NCBI GenBank assembly: GCA_026390445.1
Contig: JAPLFX010000033.1
Coordinates: 5,731 to 69,730, forward strand
Source of the DNA: Pseudomonadota bacterium
GTDB taxonomy: Bacteria > Bdellovibrionota_B > Oligoflexia > Oligoflexales > CAIYRB01
Direction of reading: 5' to 3'
DNA length: 64,000 bases
Under the pieces are notes generated by a model. The model was not told where the DNA came from. It worked only from the letters and a program-made list of their open reading frames with translations, and searched no databases. Made by a program: the position numbers and the translations under genes. Position 1 is the stretch's first letter. Each line of letters begins with the position of its first letter. Of this stretch, positions 9,145 to 45,372 are shown in pieces.

Positions 9145-9444
9145 ATGAACATCAGCAGCAAGGGTCTACTGAACGCAGTCGCCGCATTCGCCATCGTCTC
9201 CTTGTCAGGGTCCGCCATGGCCGTGACCAAGCCCAAGAGCCCGACGGCCGGCATGCACTGCGTCAATAGCCGCAATCAAGAGATCAAAGCCGCGACCAAG
9301 CTATCTGAATGCAAGGCGCCTTACCACTGGGTGAAAGCACCCATCGTCGCGACCAAAGTAAAGACCAAGCCTAACCACGCCCTAGCCCACGCCAAGAAGC
9401 ACAAGGGCCGGGTCGCTTCGACCAAGAAGACCATCAACCAGTAG
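9145..9444 (+). CDS. Small secreted lysine-rich protein, unknown function
   Basis: I prefer ATG at 9145 (SD ACGGAG upstream). It gives the signal peptide MNISSKGLLNAVAAFAIVSLSGSAMA, two Cys, and a basic C-terminus KVKTKPNHALAHAKKHKGRVASTKK. Confidence 0.55.
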   Translation: MNISSKGLLNAVAAFAIVSLSGSAMAVTKPKSPTAGMHCVNSRNQEIKAATKLSECKAPYHWVKAPIVATKVKTKPNHALAHAKKHKGRVASTKKTINQ

Positions 9445-30928: not shown

Positions 30929-33607
30929 TCAATGCTTCGCCTCGCCACTGCCCTGCGCAAATCCTGCAACCATTTCAATCAGCTTCTCAACTTCAAATGG
31001 TTTAGAAATCATATCAAAATTTGGATCAGTCCTATCGCCCAAAACCGCCTGCTTGGTCAACAACTCTCCTGTCGCCATGACAAAAGGCGTTGTTAGGTGC
31101 AACTGGCGAAACTCTAGGTAGAAGGCCATGCCGTCCATCCCATTCATCCGAAGGTCAGAAATCACCAGATCAAATCTCCGCTGATCACGGCGAAGCAAAT
31201 CAAGTGCTGCCTCTCCACCATCGACACTTTCGACTGTGGCAAAATATTCCAAGAGCAATTCAGTAAAGGTTTCGCGCAGGTCACCATCATCCTCGACATA
31301 TAGGACCGATGCCTGGCGCATATCCCGCGGTTTGTGATACACGCCTTTGCCCACGGTGCTGTCTGTTTGGAGCTGATGTTGCTTAGGGATCTTTTGTTTT
31401 GGCAAGGAAAGGGTAAACGTCGATCCCTGATCCAGTTTTGATTGCACGCTGACATCGCCACCGTGACTTCTCACGATTTGGCGGACGTTGGCCAGTCCTA
31501 GTCCAGTGCCAGCATTGGCCTTCTTGGTGGAGAAAAAAAGATCAAAAATCCGCTCGAGGTGCTGCGGATCGATTCCAGTACCCTGATCTTTCACCGAAAA
31601 TAATACCAACTCGCGTGCGTTATCTTCTGCCATGGTGATTTCAATCACACCACTTCTACCAATTTGGGCGTCTTTAGCGTTGTTGATCAGATTCAATAGG
31701 CATTGCAGAATCTCGTTGCCGTTACCAACGATGAGGAGTTGTCCCGGTGCCGTATGATCACGAATCTCGAAGTTGAACTGACGTCCTTCCATGGTATGAA
31801 CAAAAGCCGTAAGATCGTTCAATATGGACCGGCAGTCGGCAAAGGTATAGTCCGCTGCATCGGCGCGAGAATGGCGCAGCAGGCCCTGAACTAAGATGGC
31901 ACCTCGTTCGCAGAACATCTTGATGCGACCGACAGCTGACTCAATTTTTTTACCATCGGACGTGCCAGAGATCAGCTGCGCACCGCCTTGAATGCCAAGC
32001 AAGATATTATTAAAATCATGGGCAATTCCCGTCGATAGTTGGCCAAGCGAGCTAAGTCGTTCGAGTTGTGAGATTCTTACTTGAGCCCGGTGGCTCAACA
32101 TGCGAAAATCTTCAAGAGCCGAATCGACGATATGTAAGTTAAATCTGGCAACAGTCGTCAGGACTTCTTCGGGCCAGGGGATCGACCGATTCTTCCTGAT
32201 TCCCTTCCACTTTTCGAAGGACGACCTTGGCGACAGAACGGATCCGGCCGCATTGGTGTTGACGGCCTTTTCCGGATTGCCAGCCCAGTAGATCGTTTCG
32301 ATCTGCTCGGGCTGAAACCAAAGGAGAAAGCAGTTCTTCGACGTATTTGAGAAATTGACAGGCAACCTAATGGCGATCATGCCACTCGCCGTATCCTTGA
32401 TCGCTTCGGCATCTTCATAGTCGCGCTTCAAATGGTTGGTCTGATACAGCTTTTGATCGGTTAAAATGCTGCCAATCCAGCGACCCAATTTGTGGATGTC
32501 ACTCAGACTTGGGCACACTCCCCAGGTCGTCACCGTTTCATGCTCGATCAAACACAGGCCGCGTGCCCCGGCCGCAAGGAGCAGGGACTCATGGTGGATC
32601 GCTAACGATTCGGCTACGGAGCGATTCCGTTTTAAGTCGGCGATGAACTTTTCTGCGATCAACCCGTTGGTGAACATCCGAACCCTGCGGTGTAGCTCCT
32701 TCCAAGACCCAATTGCAAACGAAGCAACCGCTCCAACTGAGATGCACATTTGCCGACAACTCGGGTCCAAATACCGCGGCCCCTGATAGTGATGGCAAGC
32801 GATGAGGCCCCAAAGCTCGCCATCAGCGATCAAAGAGACGACCAAGGTCGCGCTCACCAGCATATTCTTGAGATACTGAACGTGCATGGGTGAAATGCTA
32901 CGCAAATGACTCATCGTCAGGTCCAGCGGTCCCAAATTTGCTGCAGAAACAACCGCGACCGGCGCATAGTTTACATCGGAAATCATACGAATTAAATTTT
33001 GTTTGTACAGGGCCCTCGCCTGAACCGGAATATCGGTAGCCGGGTAATGCAGTCCAAGCAGTGGTTCAAGGTCTTCATTTTTAGCTTCGGCAACGACGGC
33101 ACCATGGGCATCTTCCTCAAACTGATAGACCATGACGCGGTCATATCCAGTCAACTCTTTGACCAAGCCAGGTAAGCAACTCACGACTTCGTCCAACGAC
33201 TGTTGCCGACCGATGTCCAGTATGCTCTGATGGAACGTCTTTAGCATCGAGGGGGTAGCCGCTTCGTCCTGCGGCTGCAGTTCGACGACCCACTCGTCGT
33301 TGGCTTTAAAGCATCGCCCAACCAAAGAGCGCCCTCTCAGACGAACCTTCTTATCGACGTCGCCAGGATTTTTCGCGACGTCGCGCAACTGCGGATCGAT
33401 CACCGCGATGTCTTGATTGAGTAAGTCCGCTCCCCGCATTCCGATAATCTCGCACAGATTCTCGGAAATCCTCGTAATCCTGCCGATCGCATTCACCGCC
33501 ACGAGGTAGCCAAAGGGCTGAATCAGTCCGGGAATATGAATGGCTTCATGGTCGCAGCTCGTCCCATCAATCGGGGTTGCAGCGACAAGATATTCGGCTT
33601 GATTCAC
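30929..33607 (-). CDS. bphP: Bacteriophytochrome-type hybrid sensor histidine kinase (PAS-GAF-PHY, HisKA, HATPase_c, C-terminal receiver)
   Basis: Chromophore-Cys context TSCDHEAIHIPGLIQPFGYLV, GAF motifs YPATDIPVQARALY and SPMHVQYLKNM, H-box GIAHDFNNIL, GTGLGLA, and receiver VLYVEDD...ISDLRMNGMDG. I prefer GTG at 33607 (GGAGGA 6 nt upstream); the track start is 33658. Confidence 0.9.
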   Translation of the reverse strand: MNQAEYLVAATPIDGTSCDHEAIHIPGLIQPFGYLVAVNAIGRITRISENLCEIIGMRGADLLNQDIAVIDPQLRDVAKNPGDVDKKVRLRGRSLVGRCFKANDEWVVELQPQDEAATPSMLKTFHQSILDIGRQQSLDEVVSCLPGLVKELTGYDRVMVYQFEEDAHGAVVAEAKNEDLEPLLGLHYPATDIPVQARALYKQNLIRMISDVNYAPVAVVSAANLGPLDLTMSHLRSISPMHVQYLKNMLVSATLVVSLIADGELWGLIACHHYQGPRYLDPSCRQMCISVGAVASFAIGSWKELHRRVRMFTNGLIAEKFIADLKRNRSVAESLAIHHESLLLAAGARGLCLIEHETVTTWGVCPSLSDIHKLGRWIGSILTDQKLYQTNHLKRDYEDAEAIKDTASGMIAIRLPVNFSNTSKNCFLLWFQPEQIETIYWAGNPEKAVNTNAAGSVLSPRSSFEKWKGIRKNRSIPWPEEVLTTVARFNLHIVDSALEDFRMLSHRAQVRISQLERLSSLGQLSTGIAHDFNNILLGIQGGAQLISGTSDGKKIESAVGRIKMFCERGAILVQGLLRHSRADAADYTFADCRSILNDLTAFVHTMEGRQFNFEIRDHTAPGQLLIVGNGNEILQCLLNLINNAKDAQIGRSGVIEITMAEDNARELVLFSVKDQGTGIDPQHLERIFDLFFSTKKANAGTGLGLANVRQIVRSHGGDVSVQSKLDQGSTFTLSLPKQKIPKQHQLQTDSTVGKGVYHKPRDMRQASVLYVEDDGDLRETFTELLLEYFATVESVDGGEAALDLLRRDQRRFDLVISDLRMNGMDGMAFYLEFRQLHLTTPFVMATGELLTKQAVLGDRTDPNFDMISKPFEVEKLIEMVAGFAQGSGEAKH

Positions 33608-33842
33608 GACTATTCCTCCAAGTCCGCCAATGAAAGCGAACCAGTGACTACCTGCCACATGGCGGCCGCGCAGCGCGCGGCTGGACGGGAGCTTGGATCA
33701 TAGATCCGCCTCCCCAAACCAGCAAGCGCCGGATGTTAAGCCCTAAATAGGAAAACGCGTGAACCTCAGGCTCAGCTGAGCATCCACGCGCCTAAGTCTA
33801 GTGACCTTGGCCTGCGGCATCATGCCGCGCCGGACCGGCTTA

Positions 33843-34499
33843 TTACTGCAGCAGCGACCCAGGAGCCGGGACAATGACTTCACCTTCTTTGGTACCGGGC
33901 TTGAAAAAGATGCTGTCATTTTTCTTAATGCCTTTGATGTCGCCCTTGACCTTCACTTTGTCGCCGCTTTTAACCTGAGGTGTCTTAGAGTCCATGGCCT
34001 TGGCCAAAATGACACCGCCTTCCGACTTGATCACCAAGGCTTTGACTTCGCCTGCACCGGCAGGCCGTTCGGTCTTTTTAGCGCGAATGCTGCCTTCAGA
34101 AGTCGAGCTCTCCAACGCCAATGCCACATCCTGACCAGCGCGAATCTTAGTCTTTGCGACCTGTGCCAGAAAAGCCTTTTCGTCGCCTGTGAAGACCACG
34201 CTGACCGCCGCCGCACCCTTAGCGGACACCTTCACACCAAAGGTCGCACCGAGCTTCGATTCAAGACTCGACTTGACCGCGTCTGGTGTCACCATCACGC
34301 CTTTACCTAGATCTCCGGCCGGATCAAGCTGGAAGGAATACTCACCAGCCTTCACCTTCGACCATGAAGTCGCCAGTCCCGGCTTGGGCGTGTCACCATC
34401 GAGCTCGATCAGGGTTTTCGCCGCCGCGAACACCTGTTGCGCCGCAAACAAACTCAGACTTGCCAACATCACTCGTACCCACATTGCCGCAACCTTCAT
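33843..34499 (-). CDS. Secreted protein, unknown function
   Basis: ATG 34499 lies behind GGAGG. Signal peptide MKVAAMWVRVMLASLSLFAAQQVFAA. Lys/Gly/Val-rich C-terminal half. Confidence 0.55.
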   Translation of the reverse strand: MKVAAMWVRVMLASLSLFAAQQVFAAAKTLIELDGDTPKPGLATSWSKVKAGEYSFQLDPAGDLGKGVMVTPDAVKSSLESKLGATFGVKVSAKGAAAVSVVFTGDEKAFLAQVAKTKIRAGQDVALALESSTSEGSIRAKKTERPAGAGEVKALVIKSEGGVILAKAMDSKTPQVKSGDKVKVKGDIKGIKKNDSIFFKPGTKEGEVIVPAPGSLLQ

Positions 34500-34569
34500 C
34501 TTCAACCTCCGAAGTGGCACAAACCTGCGCCTGTTCAACAAAGCTCTGGTAGTCCCAGACTCTACTACC

Positions 34570-35121
34570 TTAAGGAAATGCCTGATAGGTGATCACGACC
34601 TTGACATCCGACTTTACCGCAGCAGCGTCCTTGACCGCTGTCCCCGTCACAGGCTTGGCTGCAAGGGCGGGGTCCTCTGGTGACTTACCGTCGACGATGA
34701 CTTTTTTGCCAACCAATTTCTTAAGTCCAGGCGGAACATCGCTAAGGGTGATGACCTTGCCACCTTCGCCGCTAACGGAATAAACGCCGTCCTTGACGGC
34801 CAGGCTACCAACCAGGGCATCGCGGCCGCTCGACATCCTTAAGACTTTAACATCGTCGGCAACAAAGCATTCCCGCTGACCGCCCTTTTTCGTTTGCCAC
34901 CGACCTGAAACCTTGACGACCAGTGGCGTCAAGTGGCGAATGCGCTGCTCCACATCCGAGCCGCAAAGCTGCGGCCCCAACGTCTCCTTCTCCGGTGTAA
35001 TCAAGGTCTGAGCATCAAAGGAGCGCCCCACCACACGAACCAAGCCTTCGATCTCATCGGCCCAAGCCGGACCTGCAAAACCAGAGACCAGCAAGGTGAG
35101 GAGCCATGGACGAATGTTCAT
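34570..35121 (-). CDS. Secreted 2-Cys protein, paralog A of an uncharacterised family
   Basis: Signal peptide ending AWA. Shares GPxLC, RIRHL, GxWQ, GGxxxCFxA, VLRMxxGRxAxVGxL, GxxGK, GxxVIxDxK and a terminal VVxxYxxxP with ORF 37037..37552. Confidence 0.65.
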   Translation of the reverse strand: MNIRPWLLTLLVSGFAGPAWADEIEGLVRVVGRSFDAQTLITPEKETLGPQLCGSDVEQRIRHLTPLVVKVSGRWQTKKGGQRECFVADDVKVLRMSSGRDALVGSLAVKDGVYSVSGEGGKVITLSDVPPGLKKLVGKKVIVDGKSPEDPALAAKPVTGTAVKDAAAVKSDVKVVITYQAFP

Positions 35122-35136
35122 AGTCTTGCGCCCTCG

Positions 35137-36963
35137 CTATTTAATTTGGACGACCGCTACGGCCGTATTTGGCAAGGTATCTTTAGTCTTAAAGCCGACT
35201 TTCAGAGTGCTATCAGTTACCGTGTATAGGTAAGGACAAGTCGCATAGTATTGCAGCTCCGGTGTGGTCACCGCATCCTTAGCAACCTCCGTCCAGGTGT
35301 GCGCCTTTGGTAAGCCGGAAAAGTTATTGTAGTGCATGCCGTAAGAGCGATCAGCCTCGCCGACCAGGTTAGTGGCCTTTTGCGGGTCCTGAACCGTGTA
35401 TTTAGCGTCCGTGTCGCTAATACCTGATCCATCGATCGCCAGAGCACCAAAATAATTGCTGATGGCATCAGTCCAAGCACCGCCAAACTTCTCAGCTAAG
35501 TTCTGCGGTCCGACATGAGTCGCGCTCTTGACGACATCGGCAAGGTACTTCAGCCCGTCACCTCCCGTCGCCACCCCATTGGTAAAGGTCACGCCACCCT
35601 TTTGGCTGATCAAGTAATAGATGAGAGTCTGTGCAGCGCCCCGGTTTAAGGCCAAGTCATCCGCTGCGGAAAGCACCGGATTGACGAGATCCTTATCGTA
35701 CCAGGTGGTCAAAAAGGTTTTGGCAAAGTCATCGAAGTTTTCTCCGCCATGCCCGAACAAGTCCTCGGTATAGTGCGCAATTCCCTCATCGACCTCCGGA
35801 GTCTCCAGGGTCCATTTCTTAGGATCGGCCGATACCTTGCGCGCGCGGAAGTAATTCATAATCGCATGCTGCATCTCATGGGCAATCGTGCCATGCCACA
35901 AGCGCTTATTTTTCGCCGCGTCAACGGCTGCCCCGACGTTTTTACCGACCTTACTGATGTCGGACGCCATGTATATCATCGGCATGTTCGTGCCAACGGT
36001 ATCAGCCGTATCATCCGACATCTTTGCGATAAAGGCCCCCGACACCTGCAGCGCGGCGAGGTTTGGCCACAGTTTGGTGTCGGAAAAGTCGACGATCGTA
36101 AAAATCGGTTTAAAGGTATAGCCATTCACCACGGCAAAGGGATCCTTATAAATCACCTCTTTGTAGCGACGAATCACCTCCTTGATCGAGGCCTCGATCG
36201 TCGCCTTGTCGCCTCCGGTGACAGGATTCGATAGGTAAACGATGCAGTAGTCGGCGGTGCTGACCACCGAGCTTGCGGCCGCAGGAATGACTTTGTCGGT
36301 CGGCACCAAGGAGGCGTTAGGCACCGCGACGGTGCCTCCAGCACTTGGGCAGCTGCTGCTGGCGAGGTTAAAACGAGCGGACCCCAACTTAGGCCGCGTC
36401 GCCTCCGAACTGACCGCACTGCGGTACATCGATTCGACCTCTCCAGGACCATCCGCCGCGGCAAAGCCCGGAGCGTCCTCTGCGTCCACACGCTTCGCCA
36501 AGCGCCAAAACTCATCGCCCTGCGCTGCCCCGAGGCGAGGCTCAAAGCGATTGAGAAGGGTCCTAAGCGCGTCGTCTTTTTGCCGCCAGTTCATGGTCGG
36601 TATCGACCCCGTAGCCGTTGCCACGGACGCTGGCACCTCCGGTTGGGAGTTTAGTAGCTTGGAGCTAGCGGCCGCCGCAGCCACGGACAGCGTTAGGGTA
36701 AACTTCTGAGCACCTGCGCCGGTGACGGTTGCCACATCACCTAAAATCACCGGCATCAGAACAAACTGCGAACCGACGGCAGCCGCAGAGAAATCGATCG
36801 ACGCCAGGCCGCTAACTGCAGTCGTTACCGACCCTTTGCCAGCCACAGCCGTCGGAGACGTGGTCGTCGGTTCCTTATCCTTTTTATCGGTTGTGCCGCA
36901 AGCATGCAGAGCGCCGCCTAGGGCCAGCAACGTCGCGACTCGACTCATTCTCAGTCCATGCAT
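35137..36963 (-). CDS. Lipoprotein with HEXXH zinc-metalloprotease motif (gluzincin-like; possibly M30/hyicolysin-like)
   Basis: ATG 36963 lies behind AAGGAG. Lipobox LALGGALHACG. HEMQH is coded at 35866-35880 within WHGTIAHEMQHAIMNYF, followed by VDEGIAHYTED (candidate third ligand Glu). Confidence 0.7.
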   Translation of the reverse strand: MHGLRMSRVATLLALGGALHACGTTDKKDKEPTTTSPTAVAGKGSVTTAVSGLASIDFSAAAVGSQFVLMPVILGDVATVTGAGAQKFTLTLSVAAAAASSKLLNSQPEVPASVATATGSIPTMNWRQKDDALRTLLNRFEPRLGAAQGDEFWRLAKRVDAEDAPGFAAADGPGEVESMYRSAVSSEATRPKLGSARFNLASSSCPSAGGTVAVPNASLVPTDKVIPAAASSVVSTADYCIVYLSNPVTGGDKATIEASIKEVIRRYKEVIYKDPFAVVNGYTFKPIFTIVDFSDTKLWPNLAALQVSGAFIAKMSDDTADTVGTNMPMIYMASDISKVGKNVGAAVDAAKNKRLWHGTIAHEMQHAIMNYFRARKVSADPKKWTLETPEVDEGIAHYTEDLFGHGGENFDDFAKTFLTTWYDKDLVNPVLSAADDLALNRGAAQTLIYYLISQKGGVTFTNGVATGGDGLKYLADVVKSATHVGPQNLAEKFGGAWTDAISNYFGALAIDGSGISDTDAKYTVQDPQKATNLVGEADRSYGMHYNNFSGLPKAHTWTEVAKDAVTTPELQYYATCPYLYTVTDSTLKVGFKTKDTLPNTAVAVVQIK

Positions 36964-37015
36964 GCCAACTCCTTTGTTCTGACCAAACAGATTGCTCACC
37001 ACCAAATGATGGACC

Positions 37016-37037
37016 AATTGACGCTAAGACGTCAATT
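37016..37037. repeat. Perfect 8-bp inverted repeat (aattgacg-N6-cgtcaatt) in an intergenic junction
   Basis: Read directly from the sequence. It spans the end of paralog B and the spacer before the HEXXH lipoprotein gene. Confidence 0.6.
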
Positions 37038-37552
37038 CAGGGATAGCGACGGTAGCTTACGACGACCTTATTAACATCCATGATCGCCGGATTGGCCATT
37101 GGCTTGAGATCGAGGATCACTTGTTCCCCCATCATCTGCCGCAGACGCGGCGTCAGATCCGCTAGGCGTTCGATTTTGCCGTCGTCCCCGGTGAGCAGAT
37201 AGCCACCACCGCTTTCAGAGGCGCTGAGCCGACCCACCGCTGCCTCGCGGCCACCTACCATGCGCAGAACCTGGAACGACGATGCTGCAAAGCAGTCTTT
37301 AACCCCGCCCTGACGCAACTGCCAGGTGCCCACAGTTCGCACCTGTAGCTGACTCAGGTGGCGAATCCGGTAGCCGATCTCTCCCGGGCACAATCTAGGG
37401 CCGTGGTGACTCTTATCAATATCGATATGCGTCTCGGTATGAAGATCGCCGCCGCTGACGTAAACCACCCCGACTAGGTCCTCGGCTTGAAGCGGCGTCG
37501 CACAGCAAAGCCAGAGCCACAACCAGGACCACGGAGACTTGATCCAACTCAC
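37037..37552 (-). CDS. Secreted 2-Cys protein, paralog B of the same uncharacterised family
   Basis: Trp-rich signal peptide MSWIKSPWSWLWLWLCCATPLQA. Conserved blocks are shared with 34570..35121. The start overlaps the upstream stop by 4 nt. Confidence 0.65.
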   Translation of the reverse strand: MSWIKSPWSWLWLWLCCATPLQAEDLVGVVYVSGGDLHTETHIDIDKSHHGPRLCPGEIGYRIRHLSQLQVRTVGTWQLRQGGVKDCFAASSFQVLRMVGGREAAVGRLSASESGGGYLLTGDDGKIERLADLTPRLRQMMGEQVILDLKPMANPAIMDVNKVVVSYRRYP

Positions 37553-38196
37553 TTTGCCGCTCCATTTAAAGGGGACGTCGATGCCGGCACCGCCGGCGGT
37601 GTGTGCGGGGCCGGCACCTGAGCGCTACAGGTGATGGCAGTTAGCCTTTCTGGGTCTAGATTGCGCCTGCAGGCTTCCTTATTCAACTTGGCCTTAGCCT
37701 CGCACTCGCTGGCCCCAGCTGCTTTGACAGCCAAATCAGGATTTAGATGCTGGCTGCCGTAGGCATCCGCACGGCACTTGGTCGGCTGACCATGCGCCTG
37801 ACACACCGCGCTTGCCGGTGGACAATGGCCGTTGCTAGCGTCCGGGACGCACTGGACTTCACCGAGCTTAGACGGCAAAAGGCCTGCAGCACATATTTGG
37901 CGATGCAGGTTTAGTTTCGCAGCGCAGCCATTGGGCCCCCAAGCGATCGACTGCTCGGCAACAGACTGGGCCTTACCAGCATAGGCTGCGGCGGAACAAA
38001 CCATCGGGTTGTAATCCATCGTGCAAACGGTGTTGCGAATCGGACATTCGGCGACAGAGGGCACATCTGCTACTGCAGGCGCCGTTGCTTTGGCCACGGG
38101 AGCAGCAACAGTCGCTGGGACTGGTACCACCGTTGGAGTTGTGCACGCTGCGACCATCAGCAGACTACAGCAAACATAAATGCGCATAGATCCCAT
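37549..38196 (-). CDS. Cys-rich lipoprotein with a tandem 6-Cys repeat
   Basis: Lipobox LLMVAAC. Two repeats (residues 51-116 and 125-190) have identical spacing C-x6-C-x8-C-x23-C-x10-C-x13-C. The ATG shares one nucleotide with the flgD stop (TGATG). Confidence 0.65.
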   Translation of the reverse strand: MGSMRIYVCCSLLMVAACTTPTVVPVPATVAAPVAKATAPAVADVPSVAECPIRNTVCTMDYNPMVCSAAAYAGKAQSVAEQSIAWGPNGCAAKLNLHRQICAAGLLPSKLGEVQCVPDASNGHCPPASAVCQAHGQPTKCRADAYGSQHLNPDLAVKAAGASECEAKAKLNKEACRRNLDPERLTAITCSAQVPAPHTPPAVPASTSPLNGAAK

Positions 38197-39404
38197 CAGG
38201 CCTTCTGGGCTTTAGCTGACGCTAGTTTATCGGATTTAACGGGGACCGGAGAGGGCTTTTCGACCTTCACAGCAGGGACTTGCGCCGCCGGAACTGGTCC
38301 AGGAACCGAGATCGGCAGCCGGACCGCAGTCTGCTCGCCAGAGCTGCCGTTGTTTAGACCAGTCGAGGCGGCGCCGGCACGCTTAGGCTCGGGTGTCTGC
38401 GCGTTTTGCTGCGCTGCTACCGCCACCGTTTTGGCCGGCGCCGGCGACCCTTCAGCGACGGCATCGCCAGCTAATGGTGGCACAAGATTTTCAACACTTG
38501 CCGGCCGAACCTTGCTATAGCCTTGCGAACCCACGGACGCCACCTCGCGCACACCAACCTTACCAACTGCGGTGTAAAACGAACCGCCGCCGTCGTGCAG
38601 ATCAACCCCAGTGACCTGGAGGGTGCTGGACACAGGTGCCGCTAAAGTCTGACCCTGCATATCCGTGGCTTGAATGCTAAAGGTGTAGGCACCGTCCGAC
38701 AGCGGTTTACCATTCTTATTGCCGCCGCTCCATTCCAGCTTGGTTTCCCCCGGCGCCACGTGGCCTAAGTCCTTGCTGGCAACAACCACCCCGGCACCGT
38801 CACGCACTTCAAGAATGGTCTTCACCGACTCGCTGTCGAGTTTGAAGCTCGCGTCCGTGGCCACTTTGCCACCCTCGACCATCAACTTGCCGTTATCCAG
38901 CTTGATGTCCTTACCGACAAAGTTGAGCAGGGTGACGGCTCGGCCAAGGGCCTCGTCGTTCTGCATCTTCTCGAGGTTTTTATTGACATTCATCATCTGC
39001 TCTAGACCGTGGAACTGCGCCAATTGCGCGGCCATCTGCGAGCTGTTGTCGGGGCTCATGGGATCCTGGTTGCGCATCTGCGTTACGAACAGTTTCAAAA
39101 AGGCGTCCTTGTCCAACTCGTTTTGCGGTTTACGCGTCACGCCTTGGTTTGCCTTGGCGGCCATCATCTTGGCAAACTCATCATCGGACTTAGCCATGCG
39201 CAGTTGATCGCCGTTTTTCTGTGCGACGCGCTCGCGGGCGGTATCATCATTCGAGTTCAGCAGAATATCGCGAAAGCTAGCTTTATCAGGCGCTCCGCCG
39301 TCCACCGCTTTCGCCGCGTCCGGCGCATTCACCTTGACATCGCTGAAGTCGCGCGTCGCGGGTGACTCGAAGGGCTTAAATTTGGCTTCCGTCGCTGCAT
39401 TCAT
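38196..39404 (-). CDS. flgD: Flagellar hook assembly/capping protein FlgD
   Basis: N-terminal FlgD block DKDAFLKLFVTQMRNQDPMSPDNSSQMAAQLAQFHGLEQ. FlgD Ig-like region LEWSGGNKNGKPLSDGAYTFSIQATD. Extended Pro/Ala-rich C-terminus. Confidence 0.88.
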   Translation of the reverse strand: MNAATEAKFKPFESPATRDFSDVKVNAPDAAKAVDGGAPDKASFRDILLNSNDDTARERVAQKNGDQLRMAKSDDEFAKMMAAKANQGVTRKPQNELDKDAFLKLFVTQMRNQDPMSPDNSSQMAAQLAQFHGLEQMMNVNKNLEKMQNDEALGRAVTLLNFVGKDIKLDNGKLMVEGGKVATDASFKLDSESVKTILEVRDGAGVVVASKDLGHVAPGETKLEWSGGNKNGKPLSDGAYTFSIQATDMQGQTLAAPVSSTLQVTGVDLHDGGGSFYTAVGKVGVREVASVGSQGYSKVRPASVENLVPPLAGDAVAEGSPAPAKTVAVAAQQNAQTPEPKRAGAASTGLNNGSSGEQTAVRLPISVPGPVPAAQVPAVKVEKPSPVPVKSDKLASAKAQKA

Positions 39405-39437
39405 AGCTGTTCATCCTTATCGTCAACTAATGCCGAG

Positions 39438-41819
39438 TCAGGCACGGACTGCGATCCTACCTTGATCGTTGACTTGACCTTGCAGCATTGCGGCCGGTAC
39501 CCGCGGCCGTGCGATCGTACTCACAGGGTTGACCTGAGGTGTGCGGACTTGTCCCCGCCATTCATCCTGCGACCGACCACCCATTTGTTGCCCGCCGCCC
39601 TGCTGGTTCATCCCAGTGAATTGCTGCTGGGACTGCGGCTGCCGGCCACTCACGCCGACCTCGACCTTGCCGAGCTGGACGTTTTGGATCGCTAAGGCGC
39701 CTTTCAATTGGTTCAGGTCGGCGGCGATGGCATCACGAGCGCGGTCAGATCCGGCGAGTACGCGCAGATCGATCTTGTCTTTGTTCATATTTAGGGCCAA
39801 CTCAAGCGGTCCGAACTCAGGTGAACTCAAGTCGAGTCGCACCGTACCGCCACCCTGCTTTACCAACATCGTCGCGTGGTTGACCACCTTCTGCATCAAA
39901 TCGAAGCGATTCTGCACGTTTAGTGGCTCAGTAGTGGCGGCGGCCGACGTTGCAAAGCTAGTCGTATGCGTTTGCTGGGTCTGCGGTTGGTGTAGACTCA
40001 GGCCTAGCTCGCGGAGGCCTTTACCGTGGTCCGATTGCTGACCAGGATCACGGCTTGGCTGCTCGCCGCCCGAAGAGTTGCGGTCGCCACTCTTCTCCTC
40101 AGAGGTCATCATGAGCATCGGTGACTGCAGGCGAAGGTCCTGCATCGGCTGCGCTGAGCTTTGCGGCGCATCGAACCTAATCGTTTCCACCTTGGTCAGG
40201 CCAAAGACATCGGAGTTATTTTGCATCAGGTCACGGAGAAGCGCCTTTTGATCGAGAGCCTCAAAACGAGCGCCCTGGGAGGAGGCTGAGGCCGGCATCA
40301 CCGTCGCGACCTCCGTGGTTTTAACCTGCATCATCACCACGCCTGGGTCATTGGCTCGCCCCTTAAGCAACGCAAAGGCTGCCTCGGGTTTACCTGATAC
40401 ATCGAGGCCACGGCTAAGTATCTGTTCGTTGAGAAAAGGGTCAAAGGACACTGCTCGCTGCGTCGGCTCAGGGTCTGCTAGCACCACCGTATCAGCAGCC
40501 CGCATCTTGGCGCCGAGCTGAGCAAACGCATCAAAAGAAGCTTTGTTTAATGTTGCTGGCTGGTCAAAGTCGTTCCTCGGGCGTGCCAGTGGGGCATCTT
40601 GCAGCGTCAAGACATCGAGAGAACCATCTGGATTGGCTCTAGCGATGACGGCTTCGAGAGAGTCATCGACGCCATTCGGTGCCCTGAGCATTGAAGCGGC
40701 GACGACCACGCGCTCGTCCGCGGGAGCCAATGGAGTCGCCTTAAGCAGGTCAGAGATTGGCCGTTGCGTTCTCGGCAATCCCTGCATAGCTGCCATCAGA
40801 GCTTGCGGCGACAGCTCATCGGACTGGCTAGGCCGCTCAGGTAACGCTTCGGCCGGTATCTGCAAGCCAGGGTTTAATCCGTTTAGCCCGTTTAATCCAG
40901 GATAAGGCTTGGGCTCCAACGGTGTTGGAGATAGCGTGTTCGGCTTGGCAACCCAGGCAAAGCCGATCGGATCCACATCGGCGACTAATGGGATGGTCGG
41001 AGTCACCGGCGTTGGCCCTGGCATCTGCTGCTGGCCTAACTGACCCAGCCGGTCCGCCTGAATTGGCTGCACCGGCTGTGGCTGCAGGGCAACAGGCGCA
41101 ACCAGGTCGGCAGTCGTGGGGTTCAGCGCCTGCGCCCGATTGATATAGGGCGCCAAGCCTTCAAGCGGCAGATTAGCCTTCAGTTGCGTCAGCTCAGCCA
41201 TCACCCTTTGCGGGTCAATGCCCATGGCCTTGAGAAAGGCGTTTGGCGTGAGCTTTTGCCCAGGATCCAACCCGACGGCCTGAACCTGCTGGAGCATTTG
41301 AGGCGGTAGTCCAAGATCATTAACAAGGTCGGCAACAGCTGCCGGCTTGTTTAGGTACTCGGGAATCTCATCGGTCGATAGCGCGTCATTGATGAATTTA
41401 TTGCCCGTCACCAGAGCTGGAATGTCGGTTGCAGGAACCCTATCGAGTTTCCCGGTTAACATAGCGACTGCGGGAGATTTATCGACGTCATGTTTGACTG
41501 CCGCCGAAGTCCTTTTCGGCGCCTGACCAGCCGTCGTCGACGAGTCATTGACCTGTGCGTCTTGTGTACCCCTGGTGGGAGTTGGCCTGGCCGCCGTGCC
41601 TGCAGCCGCAGCTGAGGTAGCTTGGCTACCACTGGGAGCCGCGCTCGGCTTCATCAGCTCATCGCTAAAACTCCGCCCGCTGCCCGCCTTAGCTGCCGGC
41701 ACGACAGACGGCTGATTGACACGCGTGCCCTCCGGCGCTGGCGCCGCGGTCATCGGCATGGGGTTTTGCGAGGTGAGGAGACTGGCGGCCACTAAAGTTT
41801 TCTCCGTTGAATCCGACAA
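39438..41819 (-). CDS. fliK: Flagellar hook-length control protein FliK
   Basis: Long Pro/Gln/Ala-rich low-complexity body. C-terminal FliK domain GGGTVRLDLSSPEFGPLELALNMNKDKIDLRVLAGSDRARDAI...LKGAL. The track start is TTG 41819; GTG 41792 (GGAG upstream) is an alternative. Confidence 0.8.
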   Translation of the reverse strand: MSDSTEKTLVAASLLTSQNPMPMTAAPAPEGTRVNQPSVVPAAKAGSGRSFSDELMKPSAAPSGSQATSAAAAGTAARPTPTRGTQDAQVNDSSTTAGQAPKRTSAAVKHDVDKSPAVAMLTGKLDRVPATDIPALVTGNKFINDALSTDEIPEYLNKPAAVADLVNDLGLPPQMLQQVQAVGLDPGQKLTPNAFLKAMGIDPQRVMAELTQLKANLPLEGLAPYINRAQALNPTTADLVAPVALQPQPVQPIQADRLGQLGQQQMPGPTPVTPTIPLVADVDPIGFAWVAKPNTLSPTPLEPKPYPGLNGLNGLNPGLQIPAEALPERPSQSDELSPQALMAAMQGLPRTQRPISDLLKATPLAPADERVVVAASMLRAPNGVDDSLEAVIARANPDGSLDVLTLQDAPLARPRNDFDQPATLNKASFDAFAQLGAKMRAADTVVLADPEPTQRAVSFDPFLNEQILSRGLDVSGKPEAAFALLKGRANDPGVVMMQVKTTEVATVMPASASSQGARFEALDQKALLRDLMQNNSDVFGLTKVETIRFDAPQSSAQPMQDLRLQSPMLMMTSEEKSGDRNSSGGEQPSRDPGQQSDHGKGLRELGLSLHQPQTQQTHTTSFATSAAATTEPLNVQNRFDLMQKVVNHATMLVKQGGGTVRLDLSSPEFGPLELALNMNKDKIDLRVLAGSDRARDAIAADLNQLKGALAIQNVQLGKVEVGVSGRQPQSQQQFTGMNQQGGGQQMGGRSQDEWRGQVRTPQVNPVSTIARPRVPAAMLQGQVNDQGRIAVRA

Positions 41820-41869
41820 GGACTAGAAGCGCGTCGATCTCGGTAAATAGAACGACTCGTATCTACCTA

Positions 41870-41885
41870 AGCAGGAAGCGTGCCA
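41870..41885 (-). promoter_or_regulatory. Sigma-54 (-24/-12) type promoter upstream of fliK
   Basis: The minus strand reads TGGCACGCTTCCTGCT. Against the consensus TGGCAC-N5-TTGCW there is one mismatch and correct GG/GC spacing. It lies about 50-80 nt upstream of the candidate fliK starts. Confidence 0.5.
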
Positions 41886-42019
41886 CCGCCTCGCGCAATA
41901 GAACTCAATGGGTTATCGCCGGGGGGAGGGCTCCGGCTAGGCGAAGTCGACCCGTCTACCGGCAGAACTTTCCCAGCCACCAGCGGCGGCGTCAGCGGCG
42001 TTCGCGAAGAAGGTCTTGC

Positions 42020-42826
42020 TTAGCCGCGCAACCAGTCGGCTACGGCCTGAGACAGTTCCTTCGGCCGATCCAAGCTGATTTCATGGCCAGCTTGAGCAAT
42101 CGGCTGCAATCTGGCGCAAGGCAGAAGCTGCGCCAGCTTCTCACTATTGGTATTAGGCACGAACCGATCGTCGGTACCGTAGAGGACCAAGGTTGGCACC
42201 TGCATCTGTTGTAAATCTTTTTTGACTAAAAACCGTGCCGCCGCAACGAGTTGCTTTAACACCATCCAAAAGTAAAGACCTTCGTCCTTGGCGATGGCAG
42301 CGTACTCACGGGTGAACTTCGCCTTTGCGACAGGCAGACAAGACGGCGAGACCAATACATCGACCAAACGAGCGTGAAACCGCTCATCACGAAACCGCGC
42401 CGCCTGCGCCAAAGTCACCACGGCGCGCGGCGACAAGCGCAGCACCCGCTGACCGGCGATACTGGTATTCATCACGATCAACGAACGACACCTGGCCGGA
42501 AATTTAATACCGAGCGCCAGCGTCACCATCCCGCCAAGCGACACTCCCATGATGTGCGCTTTGTCGATCTTCAGGTGGTCCAAGACGGCCGTGACGTCAT
42601 CAGCATGCGCAAAGATCGATTGACTCCACTTGGCCGTTGCCGTCGACCGTCCCATGCCGCGCAAGTCGATCGTAATCACCTGCACCCCGGCCTGCTCGGC
42701 CAAGTCTTTTTCGTAACCAAGCCAATGACGCACGGTACGGCCCAGGCCGCGAAGAAGGACGAGCGGGGGGCCCTGGCCGTTGACTTCATAATAGATATCA
42801 CCAGACGTCGTCTTCAGTATCGGCAT
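42020..42826 (-). CDS. Alpha/beta-fold hydrolase
   Basis: 268 aa. PPLVLLRGLG (oxyanion region), nucleophile elbow MGVSLGG, and C-terminal AGHEISLD. Confidence 0.85.
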   Translation of the reverse strand: MPILKTTSGDIYYEVNGQGPPLVLLRGLGRTVRHWLGYEKDLAEQAGVQVITIDLRGMGRSTATAKWSQSIFAHADDVTAVLDHLKIDKAHIMGVSLGGMVTLALGIKFPARCRSLIVMNTSIAGQRVLRLSPRAVVTLAQAARFRDERFHARLVDVLVSPSCLPVAKAKFTREYAAIAKDEGLYFWMVLKQLVAAARFLVKKDLQQMQVPTLVLYGTDDRFVPNTNSEKLAQLLPCARLQPIAQAGHEISLDRPKELSQAVADWLRG

Positions 42827-42828
42827 GA

Positions 42829-45372
42829 TCAGCGGCCTTTATCTTCGAGGTCTTGTAGCCTTTCGTTTAGCGCTCTGAGCTTAGTTTGCAAGGTATTGAC
42901 CTGTTCTTCCAGGGCTTTCAACGGAGTTGCGGCGCTGCTACGCAGGCCTTTGAGCAGCGGATCGATGGCCACCTGCTCCTGCAACGGCACGCGTAGCCTA
43001 TAGGCCTCAAGCGCTGCTATTTCACCGGTCGCCCTGGCCGCGCTCAGCGCCTTGGCGGCCTCTTTGCGCACACTGGCTTCAGGGTCGCGCAGTAGGTCGA
43101 CACAGCGCTCGATGATTTGGGCCTGAAGGCCGCGCTCAACATAGGGTGCGATCGCCGCTAGTCCACGCAAGGCGCCACCACGGGCACGGTACGGGGTTTC
43201 ACCTGGTGCCGTGGCCGCCAGGAGCTGCGGCACCACTTCGGGGCGCCGGGTTTGACCGAGTGCGGCCAAGGCCGTCGCTTGTTCGACCCCATGTCGCGGG
43301 TGGGTGATCTTCGCCGCCGCCTGCAACAAGTCCAGCGGGGCACGATCGCGCTGCTTACCTAAGGCGCTGTAAAGCGACGCCTGCGCCTTGGGACCGAGGC
43401 CACCTCGAGCATGCCGCTGAACCAAAGCCGCCTGAATCCGCTCATCACGAAGGAGCCCAGCCTGGCTGAAAACAGTTGGCAAAACCAAGGGGTCTTCTTC
43501 GCTTGCGATGATTCCGACCAATGCGGCTATACCCTCTTCCGATTTACTACTCGCTAGTGCTTTGATCATCTCACAACGAACGCCCCAAAATGTCTCCCCG
43601 CCGTATGCTGCCTGAACCGCCCGGAGATCCGCTCGCTTGCCGGTCTTCACGAGCTGCTGCGCGGCATGGATGCGCCCGGGGACATCCTTAGCCTTGCTCA
43701 GCTGCTCCTTGAGCTTTGCTGAGCCGGGATCAAAATCAAGCGAATGCAGAACCTTCCAGGATGGGTCAAAGCGAACCTGCTCAGGATCTTGCGACATCGC
43801 GACCTGGAAGGTGTGCCGGGCTTCCGTCAAAGCGATCTTTTGACTGAAGTCTTCGCCACCGATCGTCCAAGCAATCTCCGTATTCAGCTCGAAGGCGGGA
43901 ATCCGCGCCTTCTCGTCTACCTGCTTTTGCTCGATCGTAAAGGAGCCTACGTGTCTTTCCGCATCATAGCTAAAGGCGACCTTCAACTGCGGATAGCTCG
44001 CCGTGTAAATCCACTGGTCAAACAGCTTTTGCAAGGACCTGCCAGCATGCTTCTCCAGCATGCGCTGAAAGTCATGGGTCTCCACAACCTGATCACGAAA
44101 GGTCTGCAGGTATTCCGTCACCGCTTGCCAAAACAGCACGTCGCCGATTTCGTGGCGCAAGGTGTGCAGTCGGCAACCTCCGCCTGGATACAAATGCCGA
44201 TCGTACATCTGCCATGATGAGGTAAAAGTACGCGTCACCAAGGGCCTGGCGTAGCTATCTTGAACCTCCTCGATATAGCGCTGAGCATTTGAATAAAGGT
44301 CATAGAGTTGTTCGTCGCTGCCCTTACTGTCTTCAAGCCAGCAAGTCTCCATATAGGTTGCCCAAGACTCCTTTAGCCACGCATGGGCGAAGTCTCGGCA
44401 CACCACCAGGTCGCCGAAATAGGAATGGGCCATCTCATGGATATTCACCTGATCGGTCAACCAGCCGCCTTCGGCAATGCTGCGTTGGTCGCAGACCAGG
44501 TCATCGTTCCAGCTAACCAGGGAGATGTTCTCCATGGCGCCGCCGTAATCCGGCAAGGCAAACTGATAATATTTAGGAAAGGGAAAAGGCACACCCAGGC
44601 GCCTGGTGATCCAGCTGAGCATCGCCTTGGTGCGGCCAAAACTCAGTTCCAGGTCCTGTGGGCTAAAATCTCTGCAGCCAAAATAGGCGACCTCCAGCGT
44701 GTCGAAAGTGCCGTCATCAAAGCGGGTAAAATCCCCCACCGCAAAGCACACCAAATAACTTGGGCAACGTTGATCTAGACGCCAATGCGCGGTTTTCGTG
44801 CCGTCGCCATGGACCTCTTCGGACTCCAACCTGCCGTTGGCCAAAATACTCAGCGATTCCGCCGCAGTGATATGAAACGCCAGGGTCGTGCGGACGTTGG
44901 GCTGGTCGATGCAGGCGAGCCAGTAGCGGGCCAGCTCGGTTTCGTGGTCCGTCGCCACCGCTAGCGGCTTGGCTGGATCCGCGGCGCTCGGAGCCTTGAA
45001 AAACATCCCTGATATCGGGTGCTCAACACGGTAACTCAAAGCGACCGAGCGCTGCTCACCGTGCGCAAAAGGTCTGGCCCACGTCAGCACGATTTTCTTG
45101 CCATCGTAAGTCAAATGCGGTGCATCCACCTCCGCCACGACGACTAGCCCAAGAAAATCGATCCCATCTAAAACCAAGGTCTTAGTGCCGGCCTTTCGCG
45201 CTACCACCGTGGTCCGTACCAGCACCTTGGCAGTCTCCGCCTCAATCGCCAAAGACAGCGAAATATCTAGATGAACCGGCTCAATCTCGAGGTTTGGTGG
45301 ATAATGGGGCGTCGGCAGCTCGCCGCCAAAGGAATGGTTCGGTGCGTCGCGCCGGCATCTGCAAGTGGCCAT
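42829..45372 (-). CDS. M1-family aminopeptidase (aminopeptidase N-like) with C-terminal HEAT-like repeats
   Basis: GAMEN exopeptidase motif (YGGAMENIS). HEMAHSYFGDLV...WLKESWATY (HEXXH-x18-E). Confidence 0.9.
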   Translation of the reverse strand: MATCRCRRDAPNHSFGGELPTPHYPPNLEIEPVHLDISLSLAIEAETAKVLVRTTVVARKAGTKTLVLDGIDFLGLVVVAEVDAPHLTYDGKKIVLTWARPFAHGEQRSVALSYRVEHPISGMFFKAPSAADPAKPLAVATDHETELARYWLACIDQPNVRTTLAFHITAAESLSILANGRLESEEVHGDGTKTAHWRLDQRCPSYLVCFAVGDFTRFDDGTFDTLEVAYFGCRDFSPQDLELSFGRTKAMLSWITRRLGVPFPFPKYYQFALPDYGGAMENISLVSWNDDLVCDQRSIAEGGWLTDQVNIHEMAHSYFGDLVVCRDFAHAWLKESWATYMETCWLEDSKGSDEQLYDLYSNAQRYIEEVQDSYARPLVTRTFTSSWQMYDRHLYPGGGCRLHTLRHEIGDVLFWQAVTEYLQTFRDQVVETHDFQRMLEKHAGRSLQKLFDQWIYTASYPQLKVAFSYDAERHVGSFTIEQKQVDEKARIPAFELNTEIAWTIGGEDFSQKIALTEARHTFQVAMSQDPEQVRFDPSWKVLHSLDFDPGSAKLKEQLSKAKDVPGRIHAAQQLVKTGKRADLRAVQAAYGGETFWGVRCEMIKALASSKSEEGIAALVGIIASEEDPLVLPTVFSQAGLLRDERIQAALVQRHARGGLGPKAQASLYSALGKQRDRAPLDLLQAAAKITHPRHGVEQATALAALGQTRRPEVVPQLLAATAPGETPYRARGGALRGLAAIAPYVERGLQAQIIERCVDLLRDPEASVRKEAAKALSAARATGEIAALEAYRLRVPLQEQVAIDPLLKGLRSSAATPLKALEEQVNTLQTKLRALNERLQDLEDKGR

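Follow-up and report, generated by a model that had tools for sequence, protein, structure and literature searches.

The 64,000-nucleotide stretch of an Oligoflexales genome analysed here (the window, whose coordinates are used throughout) encodes a predicted lipoprotein zinc metallopeptidase that is remotely related to peptidase family M30, together with small exported proteins of a likewise unannotated family. The protease gene is followed directly by the gene of one such partner, parA, and this order recurs in distant bacterial lineages in which the surrounding genes are wholly different. A second partner gene, parB, is positioned upstream of the protease gene in the window and, as judged from its distribution, is a lineage-restricted copy. 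The protease and its partner are likely to form a complex, in which the partner would, tentatively, be a cognate inhibitor of the protease or a latency factor.

A genome scan identified 12 loci with extensive, near-full-length matches to the protease (L001–L012). Where their labels are informative, these loci belong to Oligoflexales, Bdellovibrionota or Pseudobacteriovorax; the other labels are generic proteobacterial ones, and L012 is labelled Polynucleobacter. The partner gene is directly downstream of the protease gene in ten of the twelve loci (L001–L010) and follows a split protease gene in L012, and L011 encodes a protease with intact catalytic motifs and no partner. Besides the window, only L001, which is 93% identical to it, L006 and L007 have a second copy of the partner gene upstream of the protease. 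A hidden Markov model search of all open reading frames (ORFs) of 80 loci found partners only in L013 and L025, both from Myxococcota, and in L077 from Longimicrobium. In L013 and L025, the partner gene lies immediately downstream of a distant protease homolog, with intergenic gaps of 9–15 nucleotides, among neighbouring genes that are unrelated to those of the window and are non-flagellar. Look-ups with divergent partners uncovered a further Oligoflexia clade (L081–L083), the protease of which is 31% identical to that of the window. The genes of this clade are in the order fliK, flgD, protease, partner and third gene, and the Cys-rich gene that precedes parB in the window is missing. A metagenome scan with A6, a profile of the Myxococcota-type sister subfamily of proteases, added nine loci (L084–L087, L089, L097, L101, L124 and L128), each with a partner directly downstream of the protease. 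The pair is thus known from about 24 loci: Oligoflexia L001–L010, L012 and L081–L083, Myxococcota L013 and L025, and the nine metagenome loci, whose contigs are unassigned. Across them, the sequence identity of the proteases drops to approximately 25–30%. When all ORFs of 163 loci were searched for partners, all but one were on the same strand as the protease and directly beside it; the exception is L077, in which the partner is about 2.6 kb upstream. Protease relatives of the Gemmatimonadota and Micromonospora types have no partner.

Because about 24 loci contain the pair and partners on both sides of the protease are rare, the conserved unit is the protease followed by one partner. On these comparisons, the protease with a single downstream partner is the ancestral and common arrangement, and the sandwich of the protease between two partners is a derived form confined to two separate clades of the protease. 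A preliminary description of the sequence had proposed a three-part unit of a protease with two related partners. Its functional link between the small proteins and the protease is upheld by the recurrence of their adjacency in distant lineages. By contrast, the three-part composition is not intrinsic: the order paralog–protease–paralog recurs in L001, L006 and L007, but the other loci with the pair have one partner. Neighbour-joining trees of the partners and of the proteases do not group the partner copies by position, and they fit either one ancient duplication followed by losses or two independent duplications. In L012 (positions 190–1987), two ORFs of 454 and 135 residues take the place of a continuous protease gene, next to an intact partner and third gene; either the protease is pseudogenised, or the split comes from a frameshift or an error of assembly. 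The contig of L012 may be mis-binned, because the metagenome-assembled genome is labelled Polynucleobacter and the locus is clearly Oligoflexia-like.

The products of parA and parB share 35% identical and 56% similar residues over their whole mature length (BLASTP, E = 8e-37). The alignment identifies them as true paralogs, with a similarity far beyond chance, as the preliminary description had stated, and it contains the blocks listed there: GPxLC, RIRHL, GxWQ, GGxxxCF, VLRMxxGRxAxVGxL and the C-terminal VVxxYxxxP. Both proteins have type-I signal peptides (ending PAWA-DE and PLQA-ED, with the hyphen at the cleavage site), which expose the mature N-termini D-E-I-E-G and E-D-L-V-G; Asp or Glu is found at this position in most homologs. 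Each mature protein contains two Cys residues, invariant in 17 Oligoflexia homologs. The partner has its own lipobox in several clades and a type-I signal peptide otherwise.

The structure of the parA product predicted by AlphaFold2 (pLDDT 83, pTM 0.72) is all-beta and consists of two barrels. In a Foldseek search of the Protein Data Bank (PDB), the model matched only proteins with the oligonucleotide/oligosaccharide-binding (OB) fold, and those weakly (best E = 8e-3). The partners can be modelled as tandem OB-like beta-barrels. The Cys pair of the Oligoflexia partners, C53 and C85, is located in barrel 1. In most Myxococcota-type partners, by contrast, the pair is in barrel 2 (GCK(V/I)W ... 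FGWLxC), and the L025 partner has no Cys; the designation as a two-Cys family, which had been given from the window sequence, therefore fits the Oligoflexia branch and has to be qualified for the other. One disulfide per partner, differently placed in the two branches, is probable and would suit an extracytoplasmic binding protein. Residues conserved across phyla are structural Gly residues, a G-(R/Q)-x-P-x-V-G linker and a terminal Y-x-x-h-P, and the Myxococcota-type partners carry Lys/Arg-rich tails.

A partner profile has no match in the PDB. The individual barrels resemble DUF5818 (PF19135), a 57-position model with a gathering cutoff of 27 bits, below the threshold of membership: the window paralogs match it with E = 0.01 and 0.09 (12.7 and 15.8 bits), and the L128 partner with E = 6e-4 (19.8 bits). 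We know of no function of DUF5818. The earlier view of the partners as an unknown family thus holds insofar as Pfam, NCBIfam and the PDB give no match above threshold, and is to be supplemented by the sub-threshold resemblance to DUF5818. One candidate fusion protein, P0023 (298 residues, L164 positions 118–1014), joins the N-terminal domain of a TldD/PmbA protein with a Tat signal to a partner that lacks its N-terminal third. It has been rejected as most likely an assembly chimera, because the junction falls inside barrel 1 and the source is a 1.5-kb k-mer metagenome contig.

The protease contains the motif HEMQH and, downstream of it, DEGIAH; the preliminary description had correctly placed HEMQH at 35866–35880 and an EG(I)AH downstream of it. 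A search of 5.8 billion clustered proteins yielded only 20 relatives, every one of them unannotated and none with a Pfam match. In the alignment of the resulting 21 sequences, H380, E381, Q383, H384, D410, E411, A414 and H415 are invariant. Gluzincins combine HEXXH with a Glu at least 18 residues downstream, and E411 is 26 residues past H384. The central protein is accordingly a predicted gluzincin-type HEXXH...E metallopeptidase, as had been proposed, and the structural matches to other gluzincins described below agree with this assignment. Its start codon is most likely the ATG at 36963, which gives a length of 608 rather than 626 residues, because the ATG is preceded by an AAGGAG Shine–Dalgarno sequence at a distance of five nucleotides; this length agrees with the 608–610 residues of close homologs. 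The earlier description of a lipoprotein of the 600-residue class stands with this correction of the start. The lipoprotein signal reads MHGLRMSRVATLLALGGALHA before the Cys-Gly of the lipobox, and the Cys-Gly is retained in all full-length homologs, where it follows L/V/I-x-A/G/S and precedes an Asp/Lys-rich linker. The His at lipobox position −2 of the window protease is atypical; nevertheless, the conserved signal identifies the protein as a predicted lipoprotein.

The AlphaFold2 model of the protease (pLDDT 77.5, pTM 0.83) differs from the M30 enzymes by additional beta domains at both termini and by a helical region. The whole protease superfamily is closed by a terminal strand, h-x-V-h-(K/R)-h-(K/R)-COOH (VVQIK, VIKIK or VLRVR), at residues 620–626 in the window. 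The final Lys is invariant in the 21 sequences; this conserved ending may have a structural role or be a sorting signal.

The highest-ranking Foldseek match of the protease model in the PDB is the M30 enzyme lugdulysin (7bb8, E = 1e-7, probability 1.0), followed by gluzincins of families M1 and M61. The fold of the catalytic domain is therefore lugdulysin-like. In contrast, the Pfam model of M30 (PF10460, gathering threshold 25.8 bits) is not matched by the window protease even at E ≤ 1, a search of the PDB with the protease sequence gave nothing significant, and the profile of the window-family alignment (A1) does not match lugdulysin in the PDB. An exhaustive profile search returned 475 cluster representatives at E ≤ 1e-3, 76 of them at E ≤ 1e-30; the latter constitute a closer family of mostly full-length proteins, and the catalytic region is the main part shared by the weaker matches. 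PF10460 has sub-threshold matches in 13 of 60 distant relatives (best E = 5e-6), one of which scores 24.0 bits (E = 1.8e-5), just under the cutoff. Sequence homology to lugdulysin is reached transitively through the A6 profile. A6 matches 7bb8 with E = 3.4e-9 in a 220-residue alignment spanning both zinc motifs, and A1 and A6 align in hhalign with a probability of 99.9% and E = 1.2e-34 over 335 columns. Through A6, HEMQH is aligned with AHEYQH of lugdulysin, and DEGIAH with WLNEALS. A local part of the A6 alignment, which is of low confidence, places lugdulysin Y315, mutated in structure 7bb9, opposite an invariant Arg (R405 of A6, R459 of the window); an invariant Tyr, Y468, is nine residues beyond R459. 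The protease is thus best described, from profiles and models, as a divergent lipoprotein branch that is remotely related to M30 and falls outside M30 by the threshold of Pfam. The guess at M30 in the preliminary description was right as to remote homology, and wrong if taken as membership of PF10460. Two other resemblances are restricted to the surroundings of HEXXH: the flagellinolysin model NF033876, which the protease matches with 14.6 bits (E = 0.017) against a cutoff of 205, and a motif-level match to astacin. A literature search on DUF5818, lugdulysin, hyicolysin, and M30 with Bdellovibrio found nothing relevant.

A physical complex of the protease and its partner is likely, given the export of both, the opposite charges of most proteases (acidic) and most partners (basic), and the tight coupling of their genes. 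The isoelectric point (pI) of the protease is 4.6–5.6 in ten of 11 loci (9.3 in L085), and that of the partner is 8–11.8 in ten of 11 (6.5 in L128). The conserved cassette would consist of an acidic, membrane-anchored, M30-like gluzincin and a small, basic, probably disulfide-containing extracytoplasmic partner. The partner would form a 1:1 complex with the protease, at the membrane or in the periplasm, and would keep the protease inactive or restrained before it arrives where it acts; the duplicated and diverged partners may represent two alternative partners of one protease. We infer the binding, inhibition, stoichiometry and disulfide. The function of a cognate inhibitor or latency factor is a tentative assignment, which falls short of being probable. 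It is favoured because of the analogy with adjacent genes for proteases and their inhibitors and with the OB-fold N-domain of the tissue inhibitors of metalloproteinases (TIMPs). Serralysin and AprI or Inh, staphopain and staphostatin, and PopC and PopD are pairs encoded by adjacent genes, and the inhibitory N-domain of TIMPs is a disulfide-bonded OB fold. A bolder proposal, and an unlikely one, is that the tandem OB-like proteins are an unrecognised bacterial family of inhibitors or regulatory subunits for M30-like gluzincins, convergent prokaryotic counterparts of TIMPs, and that Oligoflexia have incorporated the pair into their fliK-flgD operon. According to the same proposal, the protease would therefore be a regulated envelope protease made together with hook-assembly proteins.

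Several considerations weigh against a function in inhibition. The partner has no sequence match or specific fold match to known inhibitor families in Pfam, the PDB or Foldseek results. Its mature Asp/Glu N-terminus enters strand 1 directly, so that there is neither a TIMP-like Cys1 nor an AprI-like trunk. Two diverged inhibitors for one protease are not the most economical view of the duplication, and the approximately 200 N-terminal residues of the modelled protease could serve as its own prodomain. Furthermore, many related proteases are partner-less (L011, and the Gemmatimonadota and Micromonospora types), and the partner is therefore no general requirement of the protease fold.

The retention of both copies after their divergence to 35% identity would suit a diversified specificity, and thus a targeting or substrate-adaptor subunit, whose basic OB barrels would bring the protease to an anionic polymer or a substrate protein. 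The candidates are lipopolysaccharide or another polysaccharide, peptidoglycan, extracellular DNA and the prey envelope, and the two paralogs would provide two specificities. This explanation is rather unlikely, but several observations speak for it. Proteins of the OB-like fold class bind oligosaccharides and oligonucleotides, the partners are strongly basic, with pI values up to 11.8 and the Lys/Arg-rich tails of the Myxococcota type, and several of them are themselves lipoproteins, which suggests a stable membrane complex. However, no ligand-binding motif has been recognised in the partners, the residues conserved across phyla are mostly the structural Gly and those of the G-R/Q-x-P linker, and an affinity for the acidic protease would account for the basic charge just as well. 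The second diverged copy is hard to account for if the partner is a dedicated periplasmic chaperone, a foldase acting in trans in the maturation or surface delivery of the protease. Partner-less relatives of the protease, close and distant, also keep their catalytic motifs intact (L011 and the Gemmatimonadota type), and a chaperone is accordingly improbable, despite the strict adjacency of the genes, the export of both proteins, and the lack of a classical propeptide family recognised in the protease by Pfam and NCBIfam.

Two further explanations concern the neighbourhood. Synteny is generally high within Oligoflexia, and the small proteins and the protease could be neighbours by descent, without functional coupling. 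This is very improbable, since adjacency, order and strand persist in the Myxococcota and metagenome lineages, where all other neighbours differ, and L077 is the only one of 163 loci with a partner away from the protease. The other explanation views the Oligoflexia cassette as a flagellum-associated module, co-expressed with fliK and flgD, that processes or clears hook-assembly proteins or remodels the envelope around the hook and rod. The order of fliK, flgD and cassette is found in every Oligoflexia locus with upstream sequence, the first two junctions of the cassette are overlaps of 1 and 4 nucleotides, and flgD is not followed by flgE. Nevertheless, such a module is most doubtful: Myxococcota-type pairs occur without flagellar genes, the resemblance to flagellinolysin is limited to the motif, and Oligoflexia as a group share the gene order of the entire region between the alpha/beta hydrolase and RNase G, so that common inheritance may by itself account for the linkage to fliK and flgD. 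An inhibitor or latency factor continues to be the preferred, if tentative, function of the partner.

Table 1 Features of the protease–partner locus in the window
Feature	Coordinates	Strand	Remarks
fliK	39438–41819	−	Pfam Flg_hook
flgD	38196–39404	−	Pfam FlgD, FlgD_ig
Cys-rich lipoprotein, 215 aa	37549–38196	−	
parB (paralog B, upstream partner), 171 aa, pI 8.0	37037–37552	−	GTG start
M30-like lipoprotein zinc metallopeptidase (predicted), 608 aa	35137–36963	−	mechanical ORF runs to TTG at 37017
Protease signal peptide and lipobox (..LGGALHA-CG)	36898–36963	−	read from the sequence
HEMQH zinc-binding/catalytic motif (predicted), H380–H384	35866–35880	−	invariant in 21 sequences
DEGIAH, residues 410–415	35773–35790	−	E411 presumed third zinc ligand; invariant residues
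parA (paralog A, downstream partner), 183 aa, pI 9.3	34570–35121	−	position conserved across phyla
Secreted protein, 218 aa from ATG 34499	33843–34499	−	ORF 33843–34541
Bacteriophytochrome histidine kinase with receiver domain, 909 aa	30929–33658	−	

The genes of the cassette and those next to it in Table 1 are all on the minus strand and are transcribed in the order fliK, flgD, Cys-rich lipoprotein, parB, protease, parA, secreted protein and bacteriophytochrome kinase; RNase G, beyond the kinase, is encoded on the plus strand. The TGA of flgD overlaps the ATG of the Cys-rich lipoprotein gene by 1 nucleotide, and the GTG start of parB overlaps the stop codon of the latter gene by 4 nucleotides. 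parA begins 15 nucleotides past the stop codon of the protease gene, and the ATG of the secreted-protein gene is preceded by a GGAGG Shine–Dalgarno sequence. These junctions look like those of a single operon, with the cassette translationally coupled to flgD, and fliK and flgD are apparently co-transcribed with it. A scan of positions 33500–42300 for promoters and terminators detected nothing exceeding the expectation from shuffled sequences. A 7-bp perfect inverted repeat, ATTGACG-TCTTAG-CGTCAAT, is located at 37017–37036 on the minus strand, between the parB stop codon and the Shine–Dalgarno sequence of the protease gene, and could form a regulatory hairpin within the operon; it overlaps a chance-level sigma-70-like match (37035–37006).

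The order fliK-flgD is present upstream of the cassette in L001, L003, L005–L008, L010, L011, L081 and L083, and flagellar genes are absent from the Myxococcota loci. In the window, fliK and flgD stand alone, with neither flgE nor any other flagellar gene after flgD. Upstream of fliK are the genes of an alpha/beta hydrolase (42020–42826) and an M1 aminopeptidase with HEAT repeats (42829–45372), and the order hydrolase, fliK, flgD is kept across the Oligoflexia loci.

The five cassette proteins have no above-threshold match in Pfam and no significant match in NCBIfam. Apart from the protease and its partners, which the preliminary description covered, the Oligoflexia cassette, which is translationally coupled to flgD, contains the Cys-rich lipoprotein and the secreted protein. 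In Oligoflexia, the cassette comprises four unannotated exported proteins behind fliK and flgD. The Cys-rich lipoprotein is built from two repeats of about 75 residues with six conserved Cys each and the signature ECP..VC..P..C...AWG.N.C.A..L...AC..L.PS.L..V.C.PD, and translational coupling links its gene to both flgD and parB. Its homologs contain two or three repeats. They are encoded between flgD and the protease gene in L001–L011, and are absent from the clade of L081 and L083. The lipoprotein has no match in the PDB either, and could be another protease-interacting or inhibitor-like protein.

Homologs of the secreted protein were found by tblastn in L001–L008, L010 and L012, with no match in L009 and L011, and the L081 homolog is 45% identical to it; the protein thus comes after the partner in almost every Oligoflexia locus for which the downstream flank is available. 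Its N-terminus (PGLATSWSKV..YSFQLD) bears a weak SBP_bac_5-like resemblance (NCBIfam Opp5A/NikA, E = 0.0036), and a family-5 solute-binding protein is more than twice as long. The Myxococcota-type loci L013 and L084 have a different secreted protein of approximately 160 residues as the product of their third gene, 67% identical between the two loci. Its homology to the secreted protein of the window has been rejected, because the BLASTP match is not significant (E = 0.11). The bacteriophytochrome kinase is represented in L001 by only a 21-residue C-terminal remnant (9180–9242) and is absent at this position from the other loci, a pattern which indicates that the gene was either deleted recently from L001 or inserted in the window. 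The GC content is 0.52–0.53 between 30 and 34 kb in the window and about 0.58 in the flanks.

The protease reveals a large, unannotated branch of lipoproteins near M30 in Bdellovibrionota, Myxococcota and Gemmatimonadota, one sub-branch of which has a dedicated partner protein that lacks annotation as well. Should this partner prove to be an inhibitor, it would represent a new family of gluzincin inhibitors and provide a function for DUF5818-like domains. Should it prove to be an adaptor, it would represent a new way for predatory or social bacteria to target a surface protease. In either case, four consecutive genes without Pfam assignment become a testable unit.

M30 is, to our knowledge, a poorly studied family, known essentially from two staphylococcal exoenzymes, hyicolysin of Staphylococcus hyicus and lugdulysin of S. 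lugdunensis. The window protease has in common with them HExQH and the downstream Glu in (N/D)E(G/A)(L/I). However, it is about 600 residues long, compared with the approximately 400 residues of M30 enzymes, and it is predicted to be lipid-anchored in a diderm, whereas they are secreted; we know of no partner gene described for M30 enzymes. Among protease–inhibitor systems, that of serralysin (AprA and AprI of Pseudomonas, Inh of Erwinia and Dickeya; inhibitor family I38) likewise has the gene of a small beta-barrel protein adjoining that of a zinc metalloprotease. The I38 inhibitor is a periplasmic, disulfide-containing protein that is thought to protect the periplasm; it consists of a single eight-stranded barrel and inserts its N-terminal trunk. 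By contrast, the window partners are modelled with a pair of OB-like barrels and lack a free N-terminal trunk, and I38 is not found among their Pfam, PDB sequence or fold matches. Moreover, serralysin is a metzincin of family M10B, whereas the window protease is a predicted gluzincin, so that the two systems have only the logic of the operon in common. TIMPs (I35) also employ an OB-fold domain as a module for binding metalloproteases. These eukaryotic proteins inhibit metzincins by means of the alpha-amino group of Cys1, whereas the mature N-terminus of the window partners is Asp or Glu, and TIMPs are missing from the top 50 fold matches of the partner. A metalloprotease with a cognate small partner is thus a known kind of system, which is here built from unannotated families.

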